A stretch of DNA of 25,869 nucleotides from Candidatus Thorarchaeota archaeon. Lineage in GTDB: Archaea; Asgardarchaeota; Thorarchaeia; Thorarchaeales; Thorarchaeaceae. Made by a program: the position numbers and the translations under genes. The notes under the pieces were generated by a model. It searched no databases. It was given only the letters and a program-made list of their open reading frames with translations, and was not told the origin of the DNA. This document shows, piece after piece, positions 3,941-11,724 of this stretch; position 1 is the stretch's first letter, and each line of letters opens with the position of its first letter. The stretch is taken from contig PRDJ01000080.1 of NCBI GenBank assembly GCA_003345555.1, forward strand, positions 1-25,869. The letters run 5' to 3'.

Positions 3941-5854
3941 ATGACAACCAATCGAGATTCCTCAGCAGAAGGTACAAGAGTAACCCTCAAGCGGGACGTA
4001 GGTTGGTACGGCTCTTTCGCCATGGGCTACGCTGACGTAGGCGCTGACATCTATCTTGCTCTTGGCTTGGTGGCAGCGTATGCCGCAGGATGGGCTCCCA
4101 TTGCCTTTCTGATTGCGTCCGTCACGTATGTGGCGACGGGTCTTGCATATGCCGAACTAGCCACTGCTTACCCATACGCCGGCGGCGCTCACGTCTACGC
4201 GATGAAAGCATTCAATGACTTCGCAGGTTTCGGGGCCGGCTGGCTCGTAATGCTTGACTATACTGTGGATATGGCTCTCTTCTCAATAGCAACAACAGGC
4301 TACCTGACCTTTTTCCTCCCTTGGCTGAATGTGCTGACCGTTACCATCGGAGTCTTGGGCTTTCAGGTCACTCTTAGCGCCATGGGCCTGACCTCTTTCA
4401 CTATTGTTGTGGCTCTCATATGCATCAATATTATCGGTATCAAGGAATCATCTGGCTTGAACATGGTGATGGTTAGCCTGAGCCTCGTTGTGCTGTCCCT
4501 TGTGGCCATTGTGGGGCTGCTGTTCGCTTTTCGTCTCGATCTATTTGTGCTTCAGTTGTCTGTGGTGGGTGCCCCTCAACAGTTCGGCCACATATCGTAT
4601 GTGTCAGGATTGGGTCTTAACACGCAGAATCTCCTTTACGCCATCACTCTTGCGATGAGTTCGTTCATAGGTATAGAGTCGATAGCTCAGGCCGCCGAGG
4701 AGACCAAGAGGCCAGACAAGACAATTCCTCGGGCTACTAAGATGTCTGTCGTCTCAGTCTTGGTTTTCGCAGTGGGGCTATCAGTCCTCAGTATGGGGAT
4801 ACTCCCTTGGGATGTGCTGGCCGCTCATCTGGAAAGCCCCATTAGCACCCTTGCAGGCTCTTTCGCTTTCATAGGACCATTCATTGTGCCGGTGGTAGCA
4901 GGTGCGGGCTTTGCGATATGTCTCGTCTCTGCAAACACCGGAGTAATAGGGGTGTCAAGGGTTGTATTCTCGATGGGACGTTTTGGTCTCCTGCCGCGCT
5001 GGTTCTCGAAAATCAACCCTAGGACGCGGACACCCGTCCGAACCATTCTCATCTTCGGCCTGATTGGAGCAATCATGGCGCTTGTTGGACAACTTGACTG
5101 GGTTGCAGACCTCTACAACTTCGGAGCACTGCTGTCCTATTCTATCGTGAATGCGTCTCTGATTGTACTACGTCAAACGGACAAGGACACTCATCGTTCA
5201 TGGGAGGTACCCTTGAGCTTGAAGGTCAGCAGGCGTGGCCGCCTCTACAGAATCCCATTGTCCGCCATCGTTGGTATCGCTGCATGCTTGTCCATCTGGT
5301 CTCTTGTCATAGTCTTTCATCCGATGGGACGGGTCCTTGGTCTGACGTGGTTGAGCGTTGGAGTGCTGGCCTACGTGATCTATCGTCACGCGCTTAACAG
5401 ACCCCTCCTTTCGAAGGAAGCAGGGCGCTCGATAAAGCCCATGGCCTACAAGTTCAATGCACTTGTCTTGATTCGTCCCGAAGAGAAAGAGGAGGTCGTC
5501 GATTCTATCAGGGGCAGCCTGACCACTCAGTTCCGCCTAACGTTGATGAGTGTTATCCGTACTGGTCGCTGGCACATTCCTCTATCCGTGGCCGAACAGT
5601 ACAGGGAGCTGACGTTGCTCGATTTAGAGGAAATGGCTCATGCTCTCTCAGGGTTCGGCTTCGAAGCTTCAGTCCGGGTTGAGGTTGGCCCCTTAGCACG
5701 AGTAATCACTGACGCAGTCCTGTCACCCGAGTACGACTTTGTGGTTCTACCACTGAGGAAGGGCTTTAAGAAAGTACACAAGAAAGACGAAGAAGACATT
5801 GTGACGTTGGTTTCTTCCGTTGCACCTGGGAAGATTATGGTGGTAAGAAAATAA
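3941..5854 (+). CDS. APC-family amino acid/cation permease with C-terminal UspA-like soluble domain
   Basis: 637 aa. The N-terminal ~480 aa are hydrophobic with APC motifs (GADIY, YAELATAYPYAGG, GIESIAQAAEE, SRVVFSMGR..LP..FSKINPRTRTP). The last ~140 aa have a Usp-like pattern (ALVLIRP..LTLMSVI..VEVGPLARVITDAV...DFVVLP). Confidence 0.88.
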   Translation: MTTNRDSSAEGTRVTLKRDVGWYGSFAMGYADVGADIYLALGLVAAYAAGWAPIAFLIASVTYVATGLAYAELATAYPYAGGAHVYAMKAFNDFAGFGAGWLVMLDYTVDMALFSIATTGYLTFFLPWLNVLTVTIGVLGFQVTLSAMGLTSFTIVVALICINIIGIKESSGLNMVMVSLSLVVLSLVAIVGLLFAFRLDLFVLQLSVVGAPQQFGHISYVSGLGLNTQNLLYAITLAMSSFIGIESIAQAAEETKRPDKTIPRATKMSVVSVLVFAVGLSVLSMGILPWDVLAAHLESPISTLAGSFAFIGPFIVPVVAGAGFAICLVSANTGVIGVSRVVFSMGRFGLLPRWFSKINPRTRTPVRTILIFGLIGAIMALVGQLDWVADLYNFGALLSYSIVNASLIVLRQTDKDTHRSWEVPLSLKVSRRGRLYRIPLSAIVGIAACLSIWSLVIVFHPMGRVLGLTWLSVGVLAYVIYRHALNRPLLSKEAGRSIKPMAYKFNALVLIRPEEKEEVVDSIRGSLTTQFRLTLMSVIRTGRWHIPLSVAEQYRELTLLDLEEMAHALSGFGFEASVRVEVGPLARVITDAVLSPEYDFVVLPLRKGFKKVHKKDEEDIVTLVSSVAPGKIMVVRK

Positions 5855-6120
5855 TGCCCGGCATTCGAGTTATCCTGAGCGTATACATTGAGTCAAATCT
5901 CGAGGAAGTCGCAGACGCGCTCACTGAGATTCCTGAGGTTGTGGACGTCTTTGAGGTAACCGGGGAAGCGGACATAATAGCTTTCCTAGAGGCCGATGAC
6001 GTAATGCAGTTCCGCAATATTCTGAAGAACAACATCCTGAAGATACCGGGAATAAAGAGCACAGTATCAAGCGTCGTGATGTTCGTTCACAAGAAAGACG
6101 GCCAAGTAGTTGAAGAATGA
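5854..6120 (+). CDS. Stand-alone Lrp/AsnC ligand-binding (RAM) domain protein with no HTH (demi-FFRP type)
   Basis: LTEIPEVVDVFEVTGEADIIAFLEADDVMQFRNILKNNILKIPGIKSTVS is a typical AsnC C-terminal domain. Its ATG overlaps the permease TAA (taATG at 5852-5856). Confidence 0.85.
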   Translation: MPGIRVILSVYIESNLEEVADALTEIPEVVDVFEVTGEADIIAFLEADDVMQFRNILKNNILKIPGIKSTVSSVVMFVHKKDGQVVEE

Positions 6121-6139
6121 AGGGGGTTGAACTCTACTG

Positions 6140-6562
6140 GTGGAAGAAGGTACCCGAGACTATGTCTTGATGCCATATTCCGGAGATATCGCCTACTCTG
6201 ACATGGTTGCTGCAATGCTCCCTCTCTTGAAATTCCAGACAAAAGCGCTGACTCTCTTTCATGTGATTGAAACTCCCATATCCGCTCCTCTTGACACGGA
6301 TGAGATGAAGGATCTCGTTGCCGCTGCAGAAGTCAAGATCAAGCCTCTTTCGGATTGGTTAAGCAAACAGGGATACCGCGTGCAAACCAAGGTCGCAGTA
6401 GCTAGGCATGTGAAGGATGCTATAATTGAAGAGGCAAATGACCCTCGCTACTCCTTGCTATTCATGTTGAAGCGCAGAAAAAGGCGGAAGCCACTCTCCA
6501 AAAGCGTCACAGAAGAAATCATTGGTCATGTGCAGCTTCCGGTGGTCACAATCCTCGTCTAG
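6140..6562 (+). CDS. Universal stress protein (UspA family)
   Basis: VLMPYSG..LTLFHVIE..VAVARHVKDAIIEEA...LLFMLKR..SVTEEIIGHVQLPVVTI follows the Usp fold pattern. Confidence 0.8.
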   Translation: MEEGTRDYVLMPYSGDIAYSDMVAAMLPLLKFQTKALTLFHVIETPISAPLDTDEMKDLVAAAEVKIKPLSDWLSKQGYRVQTKVAVARHVKDAIIEEANDPRYSLLFMLKRRKRRKPLSKSVTEEIIGHVQLPVVTILV

Positions 6563-6650: not shown

Positions 6651-7430
6651 CTACTCGCCAACAACTACTGCATCCACGAAAAGCTCGTACTTCTCGTCCT
6701 CGTCGAGGTTGTGCATGAGGACCTTTTCGACTTCGTCTTCCCCGCGTATTTCAAGGAGTCGTGACTGATACAGCACCTTAATTCCTGACTTCGCTAGCTT
6801 CTCCTGCAGAACCTTCGTCGTCTGGATCTCATTCTCAGGTGTAGATAGCACAACTCGTCCGGTGACCGCGGTGAGCTGAATTGCTGTTTCAATGGACTTA
6901 TCGCCCGTGTGGACAACCAGTACTCGCTTGTCTTTGAGCTCTTTGGGATCATTTACCATGATGTAAACTCCTTTACCTAGGAACTGGTCTCTGCCAATGG
7001 CGCATTCCGTTGGTTCAGCTGAATGCTTCTTTTCAGCCACTGGTTCTCCTGCCATCTTCGCACGATAGTTCTTGATTGCCTCATGCAGAGCATCAGCAGC
7101 TAGGTTGGAACAGTGCATCTTGATGGGCGGGAGTCCTTGAAGTTCGTCCGCCACATTCTGCCTCGTCACCTGCATTGCTTCGTCAAGAGTCATTCCCTTT
7201 ACGAGTTCGGTCGTCATGCTGCTTGTAGCGATTGCAGATCCGCACCCGAAAGTTCTGAACTTTGCTTCCACAATCCGGTCATCCTTGACTCTGATGAAGA
7301 CCTCCATCAGGTCGCCACATATGGGGTTGCCTACTATTCCGGAGGCTACGTCATCACCCTCCATGGTTCCGACATTCCTTGGATTGCGGAAATGGTCCAA
7401 TACTTTCTCGCTATATTGAGTTGACTTCAT
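6651..7430 (-). CDS. iscU: IscU/NifU-type Fe-S scaffold fused to a degenerate thioredoxin-reductase-like NAD(P)H-binding domain
   Basis: YSEKVLDHFRNPRNVG, NPICGD, FGCGSAIA and LPPIKMHCSNLA give all three scaffold Cys plus the Asp and His. About 115 extra C-terminal aa resemble TrxR. The ATG at 7430 is preferred over the track's GTG at 7451 because GGTGAT lies just upstream. Confidence 0.9.
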   Translation of the reverse strand: MKSTQYSEKVLDHFRNPRNVGTMEGDDVASGIVGNPICGDLMEVFIRVKDDRIVEAKFRTFGCGSAIATSSMTTELVKGMTLDEAMQVTRQNVADELQGLPPIKMHCSNLAADALHEAIKNYRAKMAGEPVAEKKHSAEPTECAIGRDQFLGKGVYIMVNDPKELKDKRVLVVHTGDKSIETAIQLTAVTGRVVLSTPENEIQTTKVLQEKLAKSGIKVLYQSRLLEIRGEDEVEKVLMHNLDEDEKYELFVDAVVVGE

Positions 7431-7437
7431 TTCAACA

Positions 7438-8607
7438 TCACCTTCCTGCACAAGTGTAAATGGGAGATAGTGTCCTCAAGTGGGCAACTACTCCCGGTAT
7501 TGCTTCGATTACTTTGTCTGCATCACTGTCAACATTGAATCGTCCAAAGGTTAGCTCAAGTGAACCGTGAGCCTCTTCGTGCACCAGACCGGTCGCTATC
7601 AGTGTGTGCGAGGGTTCCAGTGTCTTTGAACTGCATGCAGAGCCGGTAGCTACTGAGATGCCTTTGTCCTTCAATGAGAGCAGAATTGATTCTCCTTCGA
7701 TTCCGTCAAACCTGAAGTGTGCGTTACTGGCTAGACGTTCTGTCGGGTGGCCGTTCAGATGGCTGTCTGGCACATCCTGAAGCACACGCTTGATCACCTT
7801 GTCACGGTAATTCTTAAACCGACTGACTTCAGAGGGCATTTCCTTGGTCATGATTTCGGCCGCGGCCCGCATGCCTACGATTCCTGGGATATCTTCTGTT
7901 CCAGACCTAAGACCTCTCTCCTGCCCGCCGCCTATCATAATTGGGTTTACCCTGAACCCTTTCCTCATGTATAGGAGGCCAACGCCCTTTGGACCATAAA
8001 TGTCGTTGGAGGATAGGGACATCAAGTCTATGCTATCCCGGTTAACGTCAAGGTCCACTAGGCCCTCGGCGGCCACTGCGTCTGTGTGAAATGCGATGCC
8101 TCTCTCCTTTGCGATTTTTCCTATCTCTGCAATGGGCTGAACAGTGCCTATTTCATTGCTAGCGTACCCAACCGAAATGAGAATCGTGTTGTCTTTCAGT
8201 TTACGTTCGAGCTTGTCAACATGGACCAACCCATACTGATCCACAGGCACTTTCGTAATCTCGAAGCCTTGAGAAGCTAGGTACTTGGCTATGTTGTGAA
8301 TTGAGATATGCTCTATCTCCGAAATAACAATGTGATTCCCCTTCTTCTTGTTCTTCAGAGCATAACCCATGAGAGCGAGGTTAATGGACTCGGTCGCCCC
8401 AGAGGTGAACACAATATCGTCCGCGTCCGCATGGATGAACTTGGCAATCCTCTTTCTGCTATCCTCAAGGGCATCGGTTGCAGTGTCGCCAACCTTGTGG
8501 AGGGATGACGGATTTCCAAACCGGTCATGGAAATATGGCATCATCTCTTCTATCACCCTTGGGTCAACAGGCTTCGACGACTGGTAATCAAGGTAAACTT
8601 CGTCCAT
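7438..8607 (-). CDS. iscS: IscS/NifS-family cysteine desulfurase homologue with the PLP Lys replaced by Asp
   Basis: VYLDYQSS, FGNPSSLH, FTSGATES, EIEH, NEIGTVQP, GGGQERGLRSGT and ATGSACSS (catalytic Cys) are present. SSNDIYGPKG replaces SxHKxYGPKG. ATG at 8607 is preferred over 8637, which would overlap dsrE. Confidence 0.92.
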   Translation of the reverse strand: MDEVYLDYQSSKPVDPRVIEEMMPYFHDRFGNPSSLHKVGDTATDALEDSRKRIAKFIHADADDIVFTSGATESINLALMGYALKNKKKGNHIVISEIEHISIHNIAKYLASQGFEITKVPVDQYGLVHVDKLERKLKDNTILISVGYASNEIGTVQPIAEIGKIAKERGIAFHTDAVAAEGLVDLDVNRDSIDLMSLSSNDIYGPKGVGLLYMRKGFRVNPIMIGGGQERGLRSGTEDIPGIVGMRAAAEIMTKEMPSEVSRFKNYRDKVIKRVLQDVPDSHLNGHPTERLASNAHFRFDGIEGESILLSLKDKGISVATGSACSSKTLEPSHTLIATGLVHEEAHGSLELTFGRFNVDSDADKVIEAIPGVVAHLRTLSPIYTCAGR

Positions 8608-8627
8608 ATCCCCCAAACCCCCTTCGC

Positions 8628-9002
8628 CTAGAACCACATGGTTGCGTCCGCGTCTAATGCGAGGTCATTCAATGTAGCGGCACCCACTATCTTGACCCCA
8701 GGTATTAACTCAACCTTGTCCCATCCAAGCATTTGTTTCGATGCTTCACAGACGTAAATTGGTATGCCGGCTTTCAGAGTCTGGTTAATCATGTCAAGAA
8801 CGCTAGGAAAGCTACCCAGTTTGATCTTCTCGGCTGCACCAGGCTTCAAAATCCTGAGACCCGTTCCAAGATAGTACACCTTCGCATCAATATTCATTGC
8901 CTTCGCGCTCTGAGCCAGCACTAGTGGAGAGTATTGTCTCTCTGGGTTGTCGCTCGTCTGGACGTACAGAATGCTCTTCTTGCCTGTAATCTTCTTACTC
9001 AT
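8628..9002 (-). CDS. DsrE/DsrF-like sulfur-relay protein
   Basis: 124 aa with PLVLAQSAKAMNIDAKVYYLGTG..GIPIYVCEAS..ELIPGVKIVGAATL..ADATMWF. A single Cys sits at the position of the active DsrE Cys. Confidence 0.85.
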   Translation of the reverse strand: MSKKITGKKSILYVQTSDNPERQYSPLVLAQSAKAMNIDAKVYYLGTGLRILKPGAAEKIKLGSFPSVLDMINQTLKAGIPIYVCEASKQMLGWDKVELIPGVKIVGAATLNDLALDADATMWF

Positions 9003-9013
9003 TTTGAATCCAC

Positions 9014-9256
9014 CTACTTTTTCTTTCTAATCAGAAATCTTTGAACACCATCTTCCTGCTTCTCGTAGAGAATGAGTTCATTCCCTGTTCTCTTCGCAAA
9101 TACCTTCAAGTCCTCTTCAGCCGCAGGATCATCGGCTAGAACCTCTAGTATCTCTCCAACTTTCAGCTTGTCTATAGCTTCTCTTGTCTGGAATAGCGGC
9201 TGCGGACAAAACAGCCCAACACAATCCAGTGTTTCTGCGGGCTCGTTCTTCTTCAT
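9014..9256 (-). CDS. tusA: TusA/SirA-family sulfur carrier
   Basis: LDCVGLFCPQP (CPxP motif), GEILEVLADDPAAEEDL and a FLIRK C-terminus. An AGGAG SD lies upstream. Confidence 0.92.
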   Translation of the reverse strand: MKKNEPAETLDCVGLFCPQPLFQTREAIDKLKVGEILEVLADDPAAEEDLKVFAKRTGNELILYEKQEDGVQRFLIRKKK

Positions 9257-9269
9257 ATCGTGTTCTCCT

Positions 9270-9323
9270 AACTATCGTTAATCAACGCTAGCTCCGCCCG
9301 TTAACTTATAAAACTATCGTTAA
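9270..9323. repeat. 12-bp exact direct repeat AACTATCGTTAA (9270-9281 and 9312-9323) flanking a TTATAA box at 9306-9311
   Basis: Read directly. The copies start 42 bp apart, in the divergent tusA/adh intergenic region. Confidence 0.75.
9306..9311 (-). promoter_or_regulatory. Putative TATA box for the tusA operon (palindromic TTATAA)
   Basis: Lies about 50 bp upstream of the tusA ATG in an AT-rich patch. Confidence 0.45.
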
Positions 9324-9450: not shown

Positions 9451-10560
9451 ATGGCACGTCACAGCAAAGCAGCGGTGGTTCCCAAACCCAACGATCCGCT
9501 CGTTATCAAGGATATTGAGATTCCCGAGCTTGTACCCGGTTCCATCTTATTGAAAGTCGCAAACGCTGGTGTCTGCGGCACCGATGTCCATCTTTGGCAT
9601 GGAAAGCTTACCGGGGTACCTTATCCACTCATACTTGGTCATGAGGTCGTAGGAACCGTTGAGGATCTAGGCTCTGGACAGACAAAGGACCTTGACGCTG
9701 GTCAGATAGAGATTGGTGACAGGGTCACGTTTCACGATGTCACAAAGACCTGCTACTCTTGCTGGAACTGTCTCGTCGCCAAAGCACCTACCAAATGCAC
9801 CAATCGAGAAGTCTACGGAATAACGCGTGACTCAAGCAAGTTTCCGTTCTTGATTGGAGGTTACAGCGAATACATGTACCTCACACCCGGCACGCACATG
9901 ATGAGCATTCCTGAGAATGTGAGTTTCAATGGAGCAATATCAGCAGGTTGCGCCCTGCCGACTGCAGTGCACGCCGCCACTAGGAGTCCACTTACATGGG
10001 GCGCCAACGTTGCAGTACAAGGAGCTGGACCAGTGGGCCTGATGATTGCGATGATCGCAAAGGTGAACGGGGCTAGAACAGTCACGTCCATTGACCAAGC
10101 TCCGAATCGTCTGGAGCTCGCTGAGGAGTTCGGGGCGACACATACCCTGAACATACGGGAGGGCACCGTTGAGGACCGTAAGAAATTCCTACGTGACATA
10201 TCGAATGGTCATGGACCTGACATAGTCTATGAGGCGACCGGCGCGGCCAGAGCCATACCGGAGGGAATAGAGCTTGTGCGTGAGGGCGGCACTTACACGA
10301 TTTGCGGCCAGTATACTGACAGCGGGACTGTAGAGGTCAGACCGCACCTGATGAATCGCAAGCACTTGGACATCAGAACTGTCTGGGGTACGGAGACAGT
10401 TCATGTATACAGGGCCATCAAGACCATTGCCGAAAACTACGATCGGTTTCCATTTGAGAAGCTTGTCACTCATCGTTTCCCGCTTCGTGATGCGCAGAAG
10501 GCGCTGGAAGCTCAGGAGAAACTGATTTCGATCAAGGCAGTGATTGCACCTAATGGTTAG
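9451..10560 (+). CDS. Zinc-dependent medium-chain alcohol dehydrogenase (MDR, TM0436-like)
   Basis: Catalytic Zn ligands (GVCGTDVH, GHE), structural Zn CYSCWNC..C and Rossmann motif QGAGPVG. Confidence 0.92.
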   Translation: MARHSKAAVVPKPNDPLVIKDIEIPELVPGSILLKVANAGVCGTDVHLWHGKLTGVPYPLILGHEVVGTVEDLGSGQTKDLDAGQIEIGDRVTFHDVTKTCYSCWNCLVAKAPTKCTNREVYGITRDSSKFPFLIGGYSEYMYLTPGTHMMSIPENVSFNGAISAGCALPTAVHAATRSPLTWGANVAVQGAGPVGLMIAMIAKVNGARTVTSIDQAPNRLELAEEFGATHTLNIREGTVEDRKKFLRDISNGHGPDIVYEATGAARAIPEGIELVREGGTYTICGQYTDSGTVEVRPHLMNRKHLDIRTVWGTETVHVYRAIKTIAENYDRFPFEKLVTHRFPLRDAQKALEAQEKLISIKAVIAPNG

Positions 10561-10650
10561 TACGAGGTGAGAATCGCAAGGATTCAAACCGACATCCATT
10601 AGTGCATGTGACTTGGCAGTTTACCAAAGCTACTGTGATGGCGGTGCCAA

Positions 10651-11724
10651 GTGCCCAATAGAGACTGTCGAGTCGGTTTTATGTGGAATACGGCCTTCGA
10701 CAGTTTCGATTATGGCGACCGACATCCGTTGAGACCCGGCCGTTTTAGAATGATTCGGGACTATCTCGATTCAGCTGGATTACTTGCGTCTGCGAACGTC
10801 GTTGAGATAGAAGCAGAACCTCTCTCTATGGCAGTTCTTGAAAGGGTCCATTCCTCAGAGTACGTCGAGTCTGTGAGAAGAATATCTCAAACGGGCGAAG
10901 GAGAGATCGACATAGATACGCCGGGATTCAGAGGAATATACGAGAATGCTCTCATGCTGTCGGGGGCTACCGTAACCGGAGTACGCGCAGTCCTTTCGGG
11001 ACATGTAGAGCATTTTCTTTCTCCTACAGGAGGCTTCCATCATGCCAAGTTCGAAAGAGGAGGCGGCTTCTGCGTATTCAACGATATCGCGGCTGCGGTT
11101 CATGAGCTAAAACAGCACGGTCTTAATCGAATACTTGTCGCGGATTTCGATGTCCATCATGGAAATGGCGATCAAGCGTACTTCTACGATGACCCGGAAG
11201 TGATGGTCATCTCTTTCCATGAGGATCCCGAGTGGATGTATCCGCACGAGGGCTACGTGAACGAGATTGGCTCTGGTCGTGGCGTTGGCTACAACATCAA
11301 CATGCCCTTTCCAATGGATGCAGGCGATAGCGTCTACAGGTATGCGTTTGACGAGCTTGTTCCAAAGCTGATTGATTTATTTCGTCCTCAATTCATACTG
11401 TTTCTGCCAGGTTTCGATGCACACTATTTGGATCGGCTGGCTCACCTCAAACTGACAACAACAATGACTCGATACATCACGGGAAGGATACACAATGCAG
11501 CGCACAAATGGAGTGAAGGGCGGCTCGGAGTTGTGACGGGCGGAGGATACCATCCTGATTCTCTGTGCTGGGGCGTGGCCTCGGTAATGTCAGTACTGTC
11601 AGGTCGGGAGTATTCTCCCCCTAGGCAAAACCCACCTTTCAAGGATGATGAGGAGACATGGAGGACTGTGCATGAGACCGTGGATCAAGTCAAGGATTCG
11701 GTCTTCCCAGTCCTAGGAATCTGA
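10651..11724 (+). CDS. Zn-dependent histone deacetylase family protein (AcuC/HDAC-like amidohydrolase)
   Basis: HPLRPGR, GGFHHA, GFCVFND, DFDVHHGNG, SFH, NINMP, GFDAH..D.LA and GGGY are all present. Confidence 0.93.
   Translation: MPNRDCRVGFMWNTAFDSFDYGDRHPLRPGRFRMIRDYLDSAGLLASANVVEIEAEPLSMAVLERVHSSEYVESVRRISQTGEGEIDIDTPGFRGIYENALMLSGATVTGVRAVLSGHVEHFLSPTGGFHHAKFERGGGFCVFNDIAAAVHELKQHGLNRILVADFDVHHGNGDQAYFYDDPEVMVISFHEDPEWMYPHEGYVNEIGSGRGVGYNINMPFPMDAGDSVYRYAFDELVPKLIDLFRPQFILFLPGFDAHYLDRLAHLKLTTTMTRYITGRIHNAAHKWSEGRLGVVTGGGYHPDSLCWGVASVMSVLSGREYSPPRQNPPFKDDEETWRTVHETVDQVKDSVFPVLGI

Follow-up and report, generated by a model that had tools for sequence, protein, structure and literature searches.

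The window analysed here, 25,869 nucleotides of contig PRDJ01000080.1 from a Candidatus Thorarchaeota archaeon (assembly GCA_003345555.1), carried on its minus strand an operon, tusA-dsrE-iscS-iscU fusion (nt 6651-9256), that is a conserved variant of the Archaeoglobus fulgidus-type minimal iron-sulfur cluster (ISC) system (MIS) of Fe-S assembly. In its IscS, the lysine that forms a Schiff base with pyridoxal 5'-phosphate (PLP) in cysteine desulfurases was replaced by aspartate. Genes encoding the sulfur carriers TusA and/or DsrE were located next to iscS at 48 of 54 loci encoding a lysine-less IscS, and at none of 84 encoding a lysine-bearing one. The Lys-to-Asp IscS noted in the initial annotation is not new in itself; it is already a published type, represented by A. 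fulgidus IscS (PDB 4EB5/4HVK), and the useful part is the carrier linkage. A functional partnership of TusA and DsrE with the lysine-less IscS-IscU is very likely.

The four co-oriented genes were spaced by 11, 20, and 7 nt, an arrangement that had been noted before and was borne out by open reading frame (ORF) and Pfam analyses. tusA (nt 9014-9256) encoded 80 aa (PF01206, 1.6e-24; PDB 1DCJ/3LVJ, 5e-12), dsrE (nt 8628-9002) encoded 124 aa (PF02635, 1.7e-16; PDB 3MC3, 3.4e-12), iscS (nt 7438-8607) encoded a predicted non-catalytic, MisS-type protein of 389 aa from the ATG (MDEVY...; Aminotran_5, PF00266, 1.4e-75; PDB 4EB5_A/4HVK, 2.3e-134), and the iscU fusion (nt 6651-7430) encoded 259 aa from the ATG (MKSTQ...; NifU_N, 1.6e-48, plus Pyr_redox, 3e-6). 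Alignments also upheld the motifs named in the initial annotation, that is, CPxP in TusA, a single Cys at the active position of DsrE, the Lys-to-Asp exchange with a retained loop Cys in IscS, and the cluster ligands of IscU.

In the window IscS, SSNDIYGPKG stood in place of S-x-H-K-x-Y-G-P-K-G, so that Asn-Asp was found where the SxHK motif of canonical ISC desulfurases has His-Lys, with Asp202 at the position of the Schiff-base lysine, while the loop Cys325 (GSACSS) was retained. The best solved relative was A. fulgidus IscS2 (4EB5/4EB7/4HVK; E 2.3e-134, residues 4-384); SSNDIYGPKG matched 4EB5_A column for column, and identity to A. fulgidus IscS was 52-54%. Residues of the cofactor pocket (H100, D176, T72, S199, S200, N201, and D202) were all invariant in 34 Asgard and Archaeoglobi sequences, and the Asp-type proteins formed one clade in the IscS tree (99 SH-like). 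On the basis of its sequence and predicted type I IscS/NifS class-V aminotransferase fold, the Asp, the loop Cys, and the ligands of the adjacent IscU, the window protein is assigned to the A. fulgidus-type non-catalytic IscS (MisS, minimal ISC). The A. fulgidus protein has no desulfurase activity, carries Asp199 in place of the Lys, and ligates with its loop Cys the [2Fe-2S] cluster on IscU (PMC8918507, PMC7585200). By analogy with this orthologue, for which both properties have been shown, the window IscS would lack desulfurase activity and contribute its loop Cys to cluster ligation. A 2022 review counted the way in which clusters are built on the inactive A. fulgidus IscS-IscU among the unanswered questions and offered sulfide as a hypothesis (PMC8918507).

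Both carriers possessed the cysteine expected of their families. The active Cys17 of TusA lay within CPxP (LFCPQP), in which C17, P18, and P20 were invariant among 34 orthologues, and the fold together with this Cys placed the protein among the TusA sulfurtransferases, with a score of 55 bits that was below the NCBIfam equivalog cut-off of 78 for E. coli-type TusA. A second cysteine, Cys12, preceded the CPxP Cys by five residues (DCxGLFCPxP); 90% or more of the subfamily members kept it, whereas Escherichia coli TusA had no counterpart, and this Cys could serve as a resolving or polysulfide-holding thiol. The only Cys of DsrE (YVCEAS), kept in the aligned linked orthologues, aligned to the first, active-site Cys of PDB 3MC3, the DsrE3A of S. 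solfataricus, of which the signature is Cys-X7-Cys (PMC4175335). The second Cys of this signature was replaced by Leu/Gly, and the window protein is, as judged from sequence, a member of the DsrE family (PF02635) nearest to DsrE3A but not DsrE3A proper. Identities of 47-55% were shared with DsrE orthologues in Archaeoglobi and a Chloroflexota genome; TusA and DsrE orthologues of Asgard and Archaeoglobi were 44-59% identical, with the catalytic Cys conserved. A DsrE3-like protein paired with TusA, with the active Cys in a like position, is also known from the thiosulfonate transfer by DsrE3A-DsrE2B-TusA of Metallosphaera cuprina and from sHdr-associated cascades. In contrast to these, the window DsrE lacked the second DsrE3A Cys and any context of hdr, lipoate-binding-protein, and dihydrolipoamide dehydrogenase genes, and the neighbours of its carrier genes were those of Fe-S assembly instead of dissimilatory sulfur oxidation.

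Linkage was defined as tusA and/or dsrE within 1.5 kb of iscS and was scored with hidden Markov models (HMMs) built from the window family. The Thorarchaeal set contained 20 loci of relatives, 18 of them with upstream DNA; the wider set contained 80 IscS loci from named genomes and 20 from the Archaeoglobus-containing class, and paralogues of further genomes were included in the total of 138 IscS homologues. As the initial annotation had anticipated, the linkage was kept in relatives, tusA being upstream of iscS at 18/18 Thorarchaeal loci and dsrE at 12/18. In the Archaeoglobus-containing class, carriers were present at 20/20 loci, at 19 with tusA and at one (L132) as dsrE only; 19 of the 20 IscS proteins were Asp-type and the remaining one (L150) had Gln. 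Sorted by the residue at the Lys position, carriers accompanied Asp in 44/44, Gln in 2/2, and Thr in 2/2 cases, and were found with Lys in 0/84, Pro in 0/1, and Val, His, Arg, or Leu in 0/5. A crude scan for the CPxP motif, independent of the HMMs, concurred, with 41/54 lysine-less versus 0/84 lysine-bearing loci. A broader rule, under which every loss of the Lys would be accompanied by linked tusA, was discarded, given the unlinked Thorarchaeal second IscS (V/H/R/L) and Desulfomonilaceae IscS (Pro). In this sample, the proposed co-occurrence held with respect to the lysine-less IscS, but not with respect to the extended IscU, since linked loci in Archaeoglobi, a Thermoplasmatales genome, Methanosarcina, and a Chloroflexota genome possessed a plain IscU.

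The genome of A. fulgidus (G068) carried tusA-dsrE-iscS-iscU (L131) plus a paralogous dsrE-iscS-iscU (L132). The IscS of L132 was identical at 377/378 positions to the crystallised chain 4EB5_A, with dsrE directly upstream of its gene. The A. fulgidus IscS2-IscU (4EB5, 4EB7, 4HVK; D199K, 4R5F) shares with the window operon the IscS clade, SSND, the loop Cys, the IscU ligands, and the carrier neighbours; its IscU is plain, whereas the Thorarchaeal IscU bears a 115-residue remnant of an NADPH domain. In the accessible literature this system is treated as two proteins fed by sulfide and the carrier genes are undiscussed; no published description of tusA/dsrE linkage to a lysine-less IscS was found in a literature search that lacked most subscription journals. 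Several genomes contained both types of IscS. The lysine-less locus was tusA-dsrE-iscS(SSND)-iscU in Thermoplasmatales (G114), tusA-dsrE-iscS-iscU with Lys to Thr in Methanosarcina (G112 and G115), dsrE-iscS(SSND)-iscU fusion in Methanoperedens (G113), and iscS-iscU-tusA-dsrE with Lys to Gln in Chloroflexota (G042), and the Lys-bearing paralogues in each of them were without carriers. In one relative only (G005, L034:3034-5276), two unrelated ORFs, one of 532 aa on the opposite strand and one of 161 aa, were inserted between iscS and iscU.

Several observations weigh against reading the carriers as the sulfur source of this scaffold. The IscS tree needs just three changes per trait and provides two to three independent contrasts, too few for a significant sign test; the linkage counts therefore reflect few evolutionary events, and the association may in part be due to inheritance plus lateral transfer of one cassette. 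Neither carrier was universal: 6 of the 18 Thorarchaeal loci had no dsrE, and the HMM scan detected no tusA beside the gene for A. fulgidus IscS2. At five loci of a second Thorarchaeal IscS-IscU pair, in which Lys is changed to V, H, R, or L, carriers were absent within 5 kb, and the Desulfomonilaceae IscS with Lys to Pro had no carriers nearby; hence, such lysine-less scaffolds can work without adjacent carrier genes, perhaps directly from sulfide. The host genome encoded a stand-alone SufS-like class-V aminotransferase with intact HK and RSGWHCAAP motifs outside any suf operon (G000:C26:23047-24417, minus strand), and neither rhodanese nor YeeE/TsuA, possible loaders of TusA, was found in it. 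Because the intact SufS-like enzyme could load the carriers, the earlier statement that sulfur comes from carriers rather than from cysteine desulfuration is not established, and the second lysine-less pair without carriers bears on it likewise. More persuasive than the counts are two other observations: several phyla have retained the block, and within single genomes carriers occur only at the lysine-less copy.

No SufB/D was found in the host genome, an assembly of 82 contigs that totals 2.28 Mb and is 93% complete, and none in the genus (0/3 genomes), compared with 17 of the 31 genomes of the family; the lysine-less IscS-IscU pairs are thus the only Fe-S scaffolds detected in the host genome. 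The second pair of this genome was located at G000:C52:22398-24489, with the PLP Lys replaced by Val (DAHVIHGPKG); in relatives, this position of the carrier-less paralogue drifted among V, H, R, and L. An ORF of 133 aa directly upstream of the pair may encode a regulator, as it gave a weak helix-turn-helix match and its C-terminus was rich in Cys. A second sulfur-carrier cluster was observed at G000:C67:11077-12202, where dsrE is accompanied by a gene for a DUF5400 membrane protein and by tusA in divergent orientation.

From the observed gene content, motifs, conservation, and linkage specificity, we infer the following for the loading of the carriers, for the transfer of sulfur and the way it runs, and for the function of the extra domain. 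Because its Schiff-base Lys is Asp, IscS would no longer draw sulfur from cysteine but would act as a structural partner of IscU and contribute its loop Cys to the ligation of the nascent [2Fe-2S] cluster. TusA and DsrE, presumably co-transcribed with it, would collect sulfane sulfur on their conserved Cys residues and pass this on, either to the loop Cys of IscS or to IscU, substituting for the lost desulfurase step. The ultimate sulfur may be environmental sulfide or polysulfide, or may come from the stand-alone SufS-like desulfurase of the genome; for DsrE of Allochromatium vinosum, sulfide alone suffices for persulfuration in vitro (PMC3397948). In orthologous operons, electrons could plausibly be provided by the full-length thioredoxin reductase (TrxR)-like flavoprotein that is fused to IscU there. 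We lean slightly towards delivery of sulfur by the carriers to the IscS-IscU scaffold. A complex prediction with IscS, the IscU fusion, and TusA scored 0.00 and carries no weight either way. A wider form of the proposal is put forward tentatively: a carrier-fed MIS variant may be widely distributed among anaerobic archaea (Asgard, Archaeoglobi, Methanoperedens, Methanosarcina, and Thermoplasmatota) and also occur in some bacteria. In this variant, TusA/DsrE would take up sulfane sulfur with no cysteine desulfurase involved and feed a non-catalytic IscS-IscU, and an ancestral IscU-fused TrxR-like flavoprotein would give the electrons turning persulfide into cluster sulfide.

The same genes could be arranged in other schemes. 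IscS-IscU might use sulfide directly, a source already proposed in the literature (PMC8918507), with TusA/DsrE acting downstream or alongside, either relaying sulfur from the IscS loop Cys to a thio-cofactor or tRNA thiolation, or buffering reactive sulfur. TusA and a DsrE-family protein beside IscS mirror the E. coli relay (IscS-TusA-TusBCD-TusE; IscS-TusA complex, PDB 3LVJ), in which sulfur passes from IscS to a CPxP TusA and on to TusBCD, TusD being a DsrE homologue (PMC3397948), and the occurrence of carrier-less lysine-less pairs in the same genome also favours such a scheme. However, the E. coli IscS is an active donor from which sulfur flows outward to tRNA, and iscSU and the relay genes do not form a common operon. 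The window IscS is without the Lys, so that any sulfur flow must begin elsewhere; unable to form a persulfide from cysteine, it would leave an outward relay with no evident sulfur input. The linkage was, moreover, absent from all 84 catalytically competent IscS, the very ones expected to feed a relay, and ORF and Pfam analyses revealed neither tRNA-thiolation nor molybdenum cofactor genes in the operon. We regard this arrangement as rather unlikely.

Cysteine would still be the source if the SufS-like desulfurase persulfurated TusA and/or DsrE and these shuttled the sulfur to the non-catalytic IscS-IscU. This would resemble SufS-SufE/SufU-SufBCD, where a small carrier likewise brings persulfide sulfur to a scaffold, although the protein families there are others and the active donor belongs to SUF. 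The SufS-like enzyme has its catalytic motifs intact and, lying outside a suf operon in a genome where SufB/D was not found, has no evident acceptor, which speaks for this scheme; yet its gene is unlinked to the operon, and A. fulgidus and methanogens inhabit sulfide-rich settings, for which the use of sulfide has been either documented or proposed (PMC13066941, PMC8918507). We consider loading by this enzyme unlikely. Another idea is that the Asp-type IscS keeps a different cofactor-dependent activity, for example on carrier-bound thiosulfonate or persulfide, the substrate being presented by TusA/DsrE. The pocket, invariant apart from the Lys across the 34 Asgard and Archaeoglobi sequences, contrasts with the carrier-less paralogue and its drifting Lys position, and A. 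fulgidus IscS binds pyridoxamine 5'-phosphate (PMP) (PMC8918507). But PMP is also held by the D199K variant (PMC8918507), no activity has been reported for the A. fulgidus protein, and conservation of the pocket may only serve folding or cofactor-dependent stability; we consider a residual activity improbable. Delivery of sulfur by TusA and DsrE to a non-catalytic IscS-IscU is the most likely reading, by a small margin over the alternatives taken together.

The IscU fusion consisted of a scaffold domain (residues 1-127, nt 7050-7430; NifU_N, 1.6e-48; PDB 7C8M, 3.9e-50; 4EB5_C, 2.3e-45), in which the cluster ligands C39, D41, C64, H107, and C108 were invariant in 47 sequences, followed by a linker (residues 128-144), a C-terminal domain (residues about 145-259), and the stop codon (together nt 6651-7049), as delimited by an AlphaFold2 model, Foldseek, and motif alignment. 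The Pfam Pyr_redox match (3e-6) covered residues 170-241. The model had a predicted local distance difference test score of 81, with low confidence in the linker, and Foldseek aligned the C-terminal domain with the NADPH domains of 2ZBW, 3F8P, and 4ZN0 (root mean square deviation about 1.4 A over about 119 residues). The matched part corresponded to TrxR residues about 120-245 only, with nothing corresponding to the flavin adenine dinucleotide (FAD) domain. Compared with low-molecular-weight TrxR and TrxR-like ferredoxin-NADP reductases (4ZN0, 2ZBW, and 3LZW), the domain had the same NADPH-domain fold at 25-30% identity, but GGGNSA was changed to HTGDKS, HRR to STP, and CxxC to IMVN, and GxGxxG was absent. 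The extra domain, called TrxR-like in the initial annotation, is real, but it is a degenerate NADPH-domain remnant, without FAD domain, CxxC, and GxGxxG, and not a reductase. It was still conserved, with 14 invariant positions and a length fixed at 259 aa in some 200 proteins; the extended-IscU homologues were labelled Candidatus Thorarchaeota or Sifarchaeia by their sources. A linker Cys (ECAIG) was rejected as a remnant of the TrxR CxxC, since it lacks conservation and since alignment to full-length fusions assigns IMVN of the window protein to the CxxC position.

Full-length IscU::TrxR-like fusions of 441-448 aa were found in Methanoperedens, an ANME-2 lineage, and a protein that NCBI names Jordarchaeaceae; they kept the FAD and NADPH motifs but not CxxC, and they resided in tusA-(dsrE)-iscS(SSND) operons (L173, L165, and L172), one of which lies on a Jordarchaeaceae-like Asgard contig. 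Compared with the NADPH domain of the Jordarchaeaceae-named fusion (P0224), the window C-terminal domain showed 37% identity and had the motif EKV..H.L.EDE..EL.VD in common. In the IscS tree, L172, a contig that encodes a full-length fusion, was sister to the truncated Asgard forms (98 SH-aLRT). The simplest reading of these similarities is that the Thorarchaeal domain is a vestige of the NADPH domain left after loss of both halves of the FAD domain. Since the FAD domain and the nucleotide motif have been lost, its role is probably structural or docking only. The electron donors of MIS systems have been stated as unknown (PMC13066941); the full-length fusion is a candidate for this function, and the Thorarchaeal remnant is probably not one. 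In Methanoperedens, an ORF of 143 aa, flavodoxin-like by eye, and a Cys-rich ORF of 91 aa directly followed the iscU::TrxR-like gene (L165:6587-7286); their products could be further electron-transfer partners.

Sequence inspection, repeat counts, and the upstream DNA of relatives located the promoter region of the operon at nt 9265-9323 (minus strand). Upstream of tusA were a TATA-like TTTTATAAG (nt 9305-9313), two exact 12-nt copies of TTAACGATAGTT (nt 9312-9323 and 9270-9281; 2 occurrences observed versus 0.06 expected), and AGGAG (nt 9265-9269) before the tusA ATG (nt 9256). Most Thorarchaeal relatives have a TTAAC-N4-GTTA-like motif in the corresponding place, after a TATA box and ahead of tusA. 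The TATA-like box and the conserved operator-like motif fit a single regulated promoter before tusA. The same arrangement of TATA and motif was observed elsewhere in the genome (C24:25760-25812), ahead of an uncharacterised ORF of 192 aa (C24:25813-26391) with no Pfam match. The flanks of the operon (nt 5854-6562 and 9451-11,724 of the window) were ordinary and without sulfur connection: genes for a protein with an AsnC-type ligand-binding domain and a universal stress protein were located downstream (nt 5854-6562), and a divergent zinc alcohol dehydrogenase gene and a histone-deacetylase-family gene upstream (nt 9451-11,724).

Two questions have been named by reviews, that is, how clusters are assembled with an inactive IscS (PMC8918507) and which sulfur and electron donors serve the minimal MIS (PMC13066941). 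The linkage, which includes the crystallised A. fulgidus gene, suggests where lysine-less systems obtain their sulfur, and TusA and DsrE, together with the IscU-fused TrxR-like flavoprotein in some lineages, are concrete donor candidates. The proteins are small and soluble, and A. fulgidus IscS-IscU has already been made recombinantly; the hypothesis is therefore directly testable. As no SUF-type scaffold was found in the host, it may depend chiefly on the lysine-less systems for Fe-S assembly. If true, the wider proposal of carrier feeding with an IscU-fused flavoprotein would answer the question of the sulfur source of A. fulgidus IscS-IscU and identify an electron donor for MIS.

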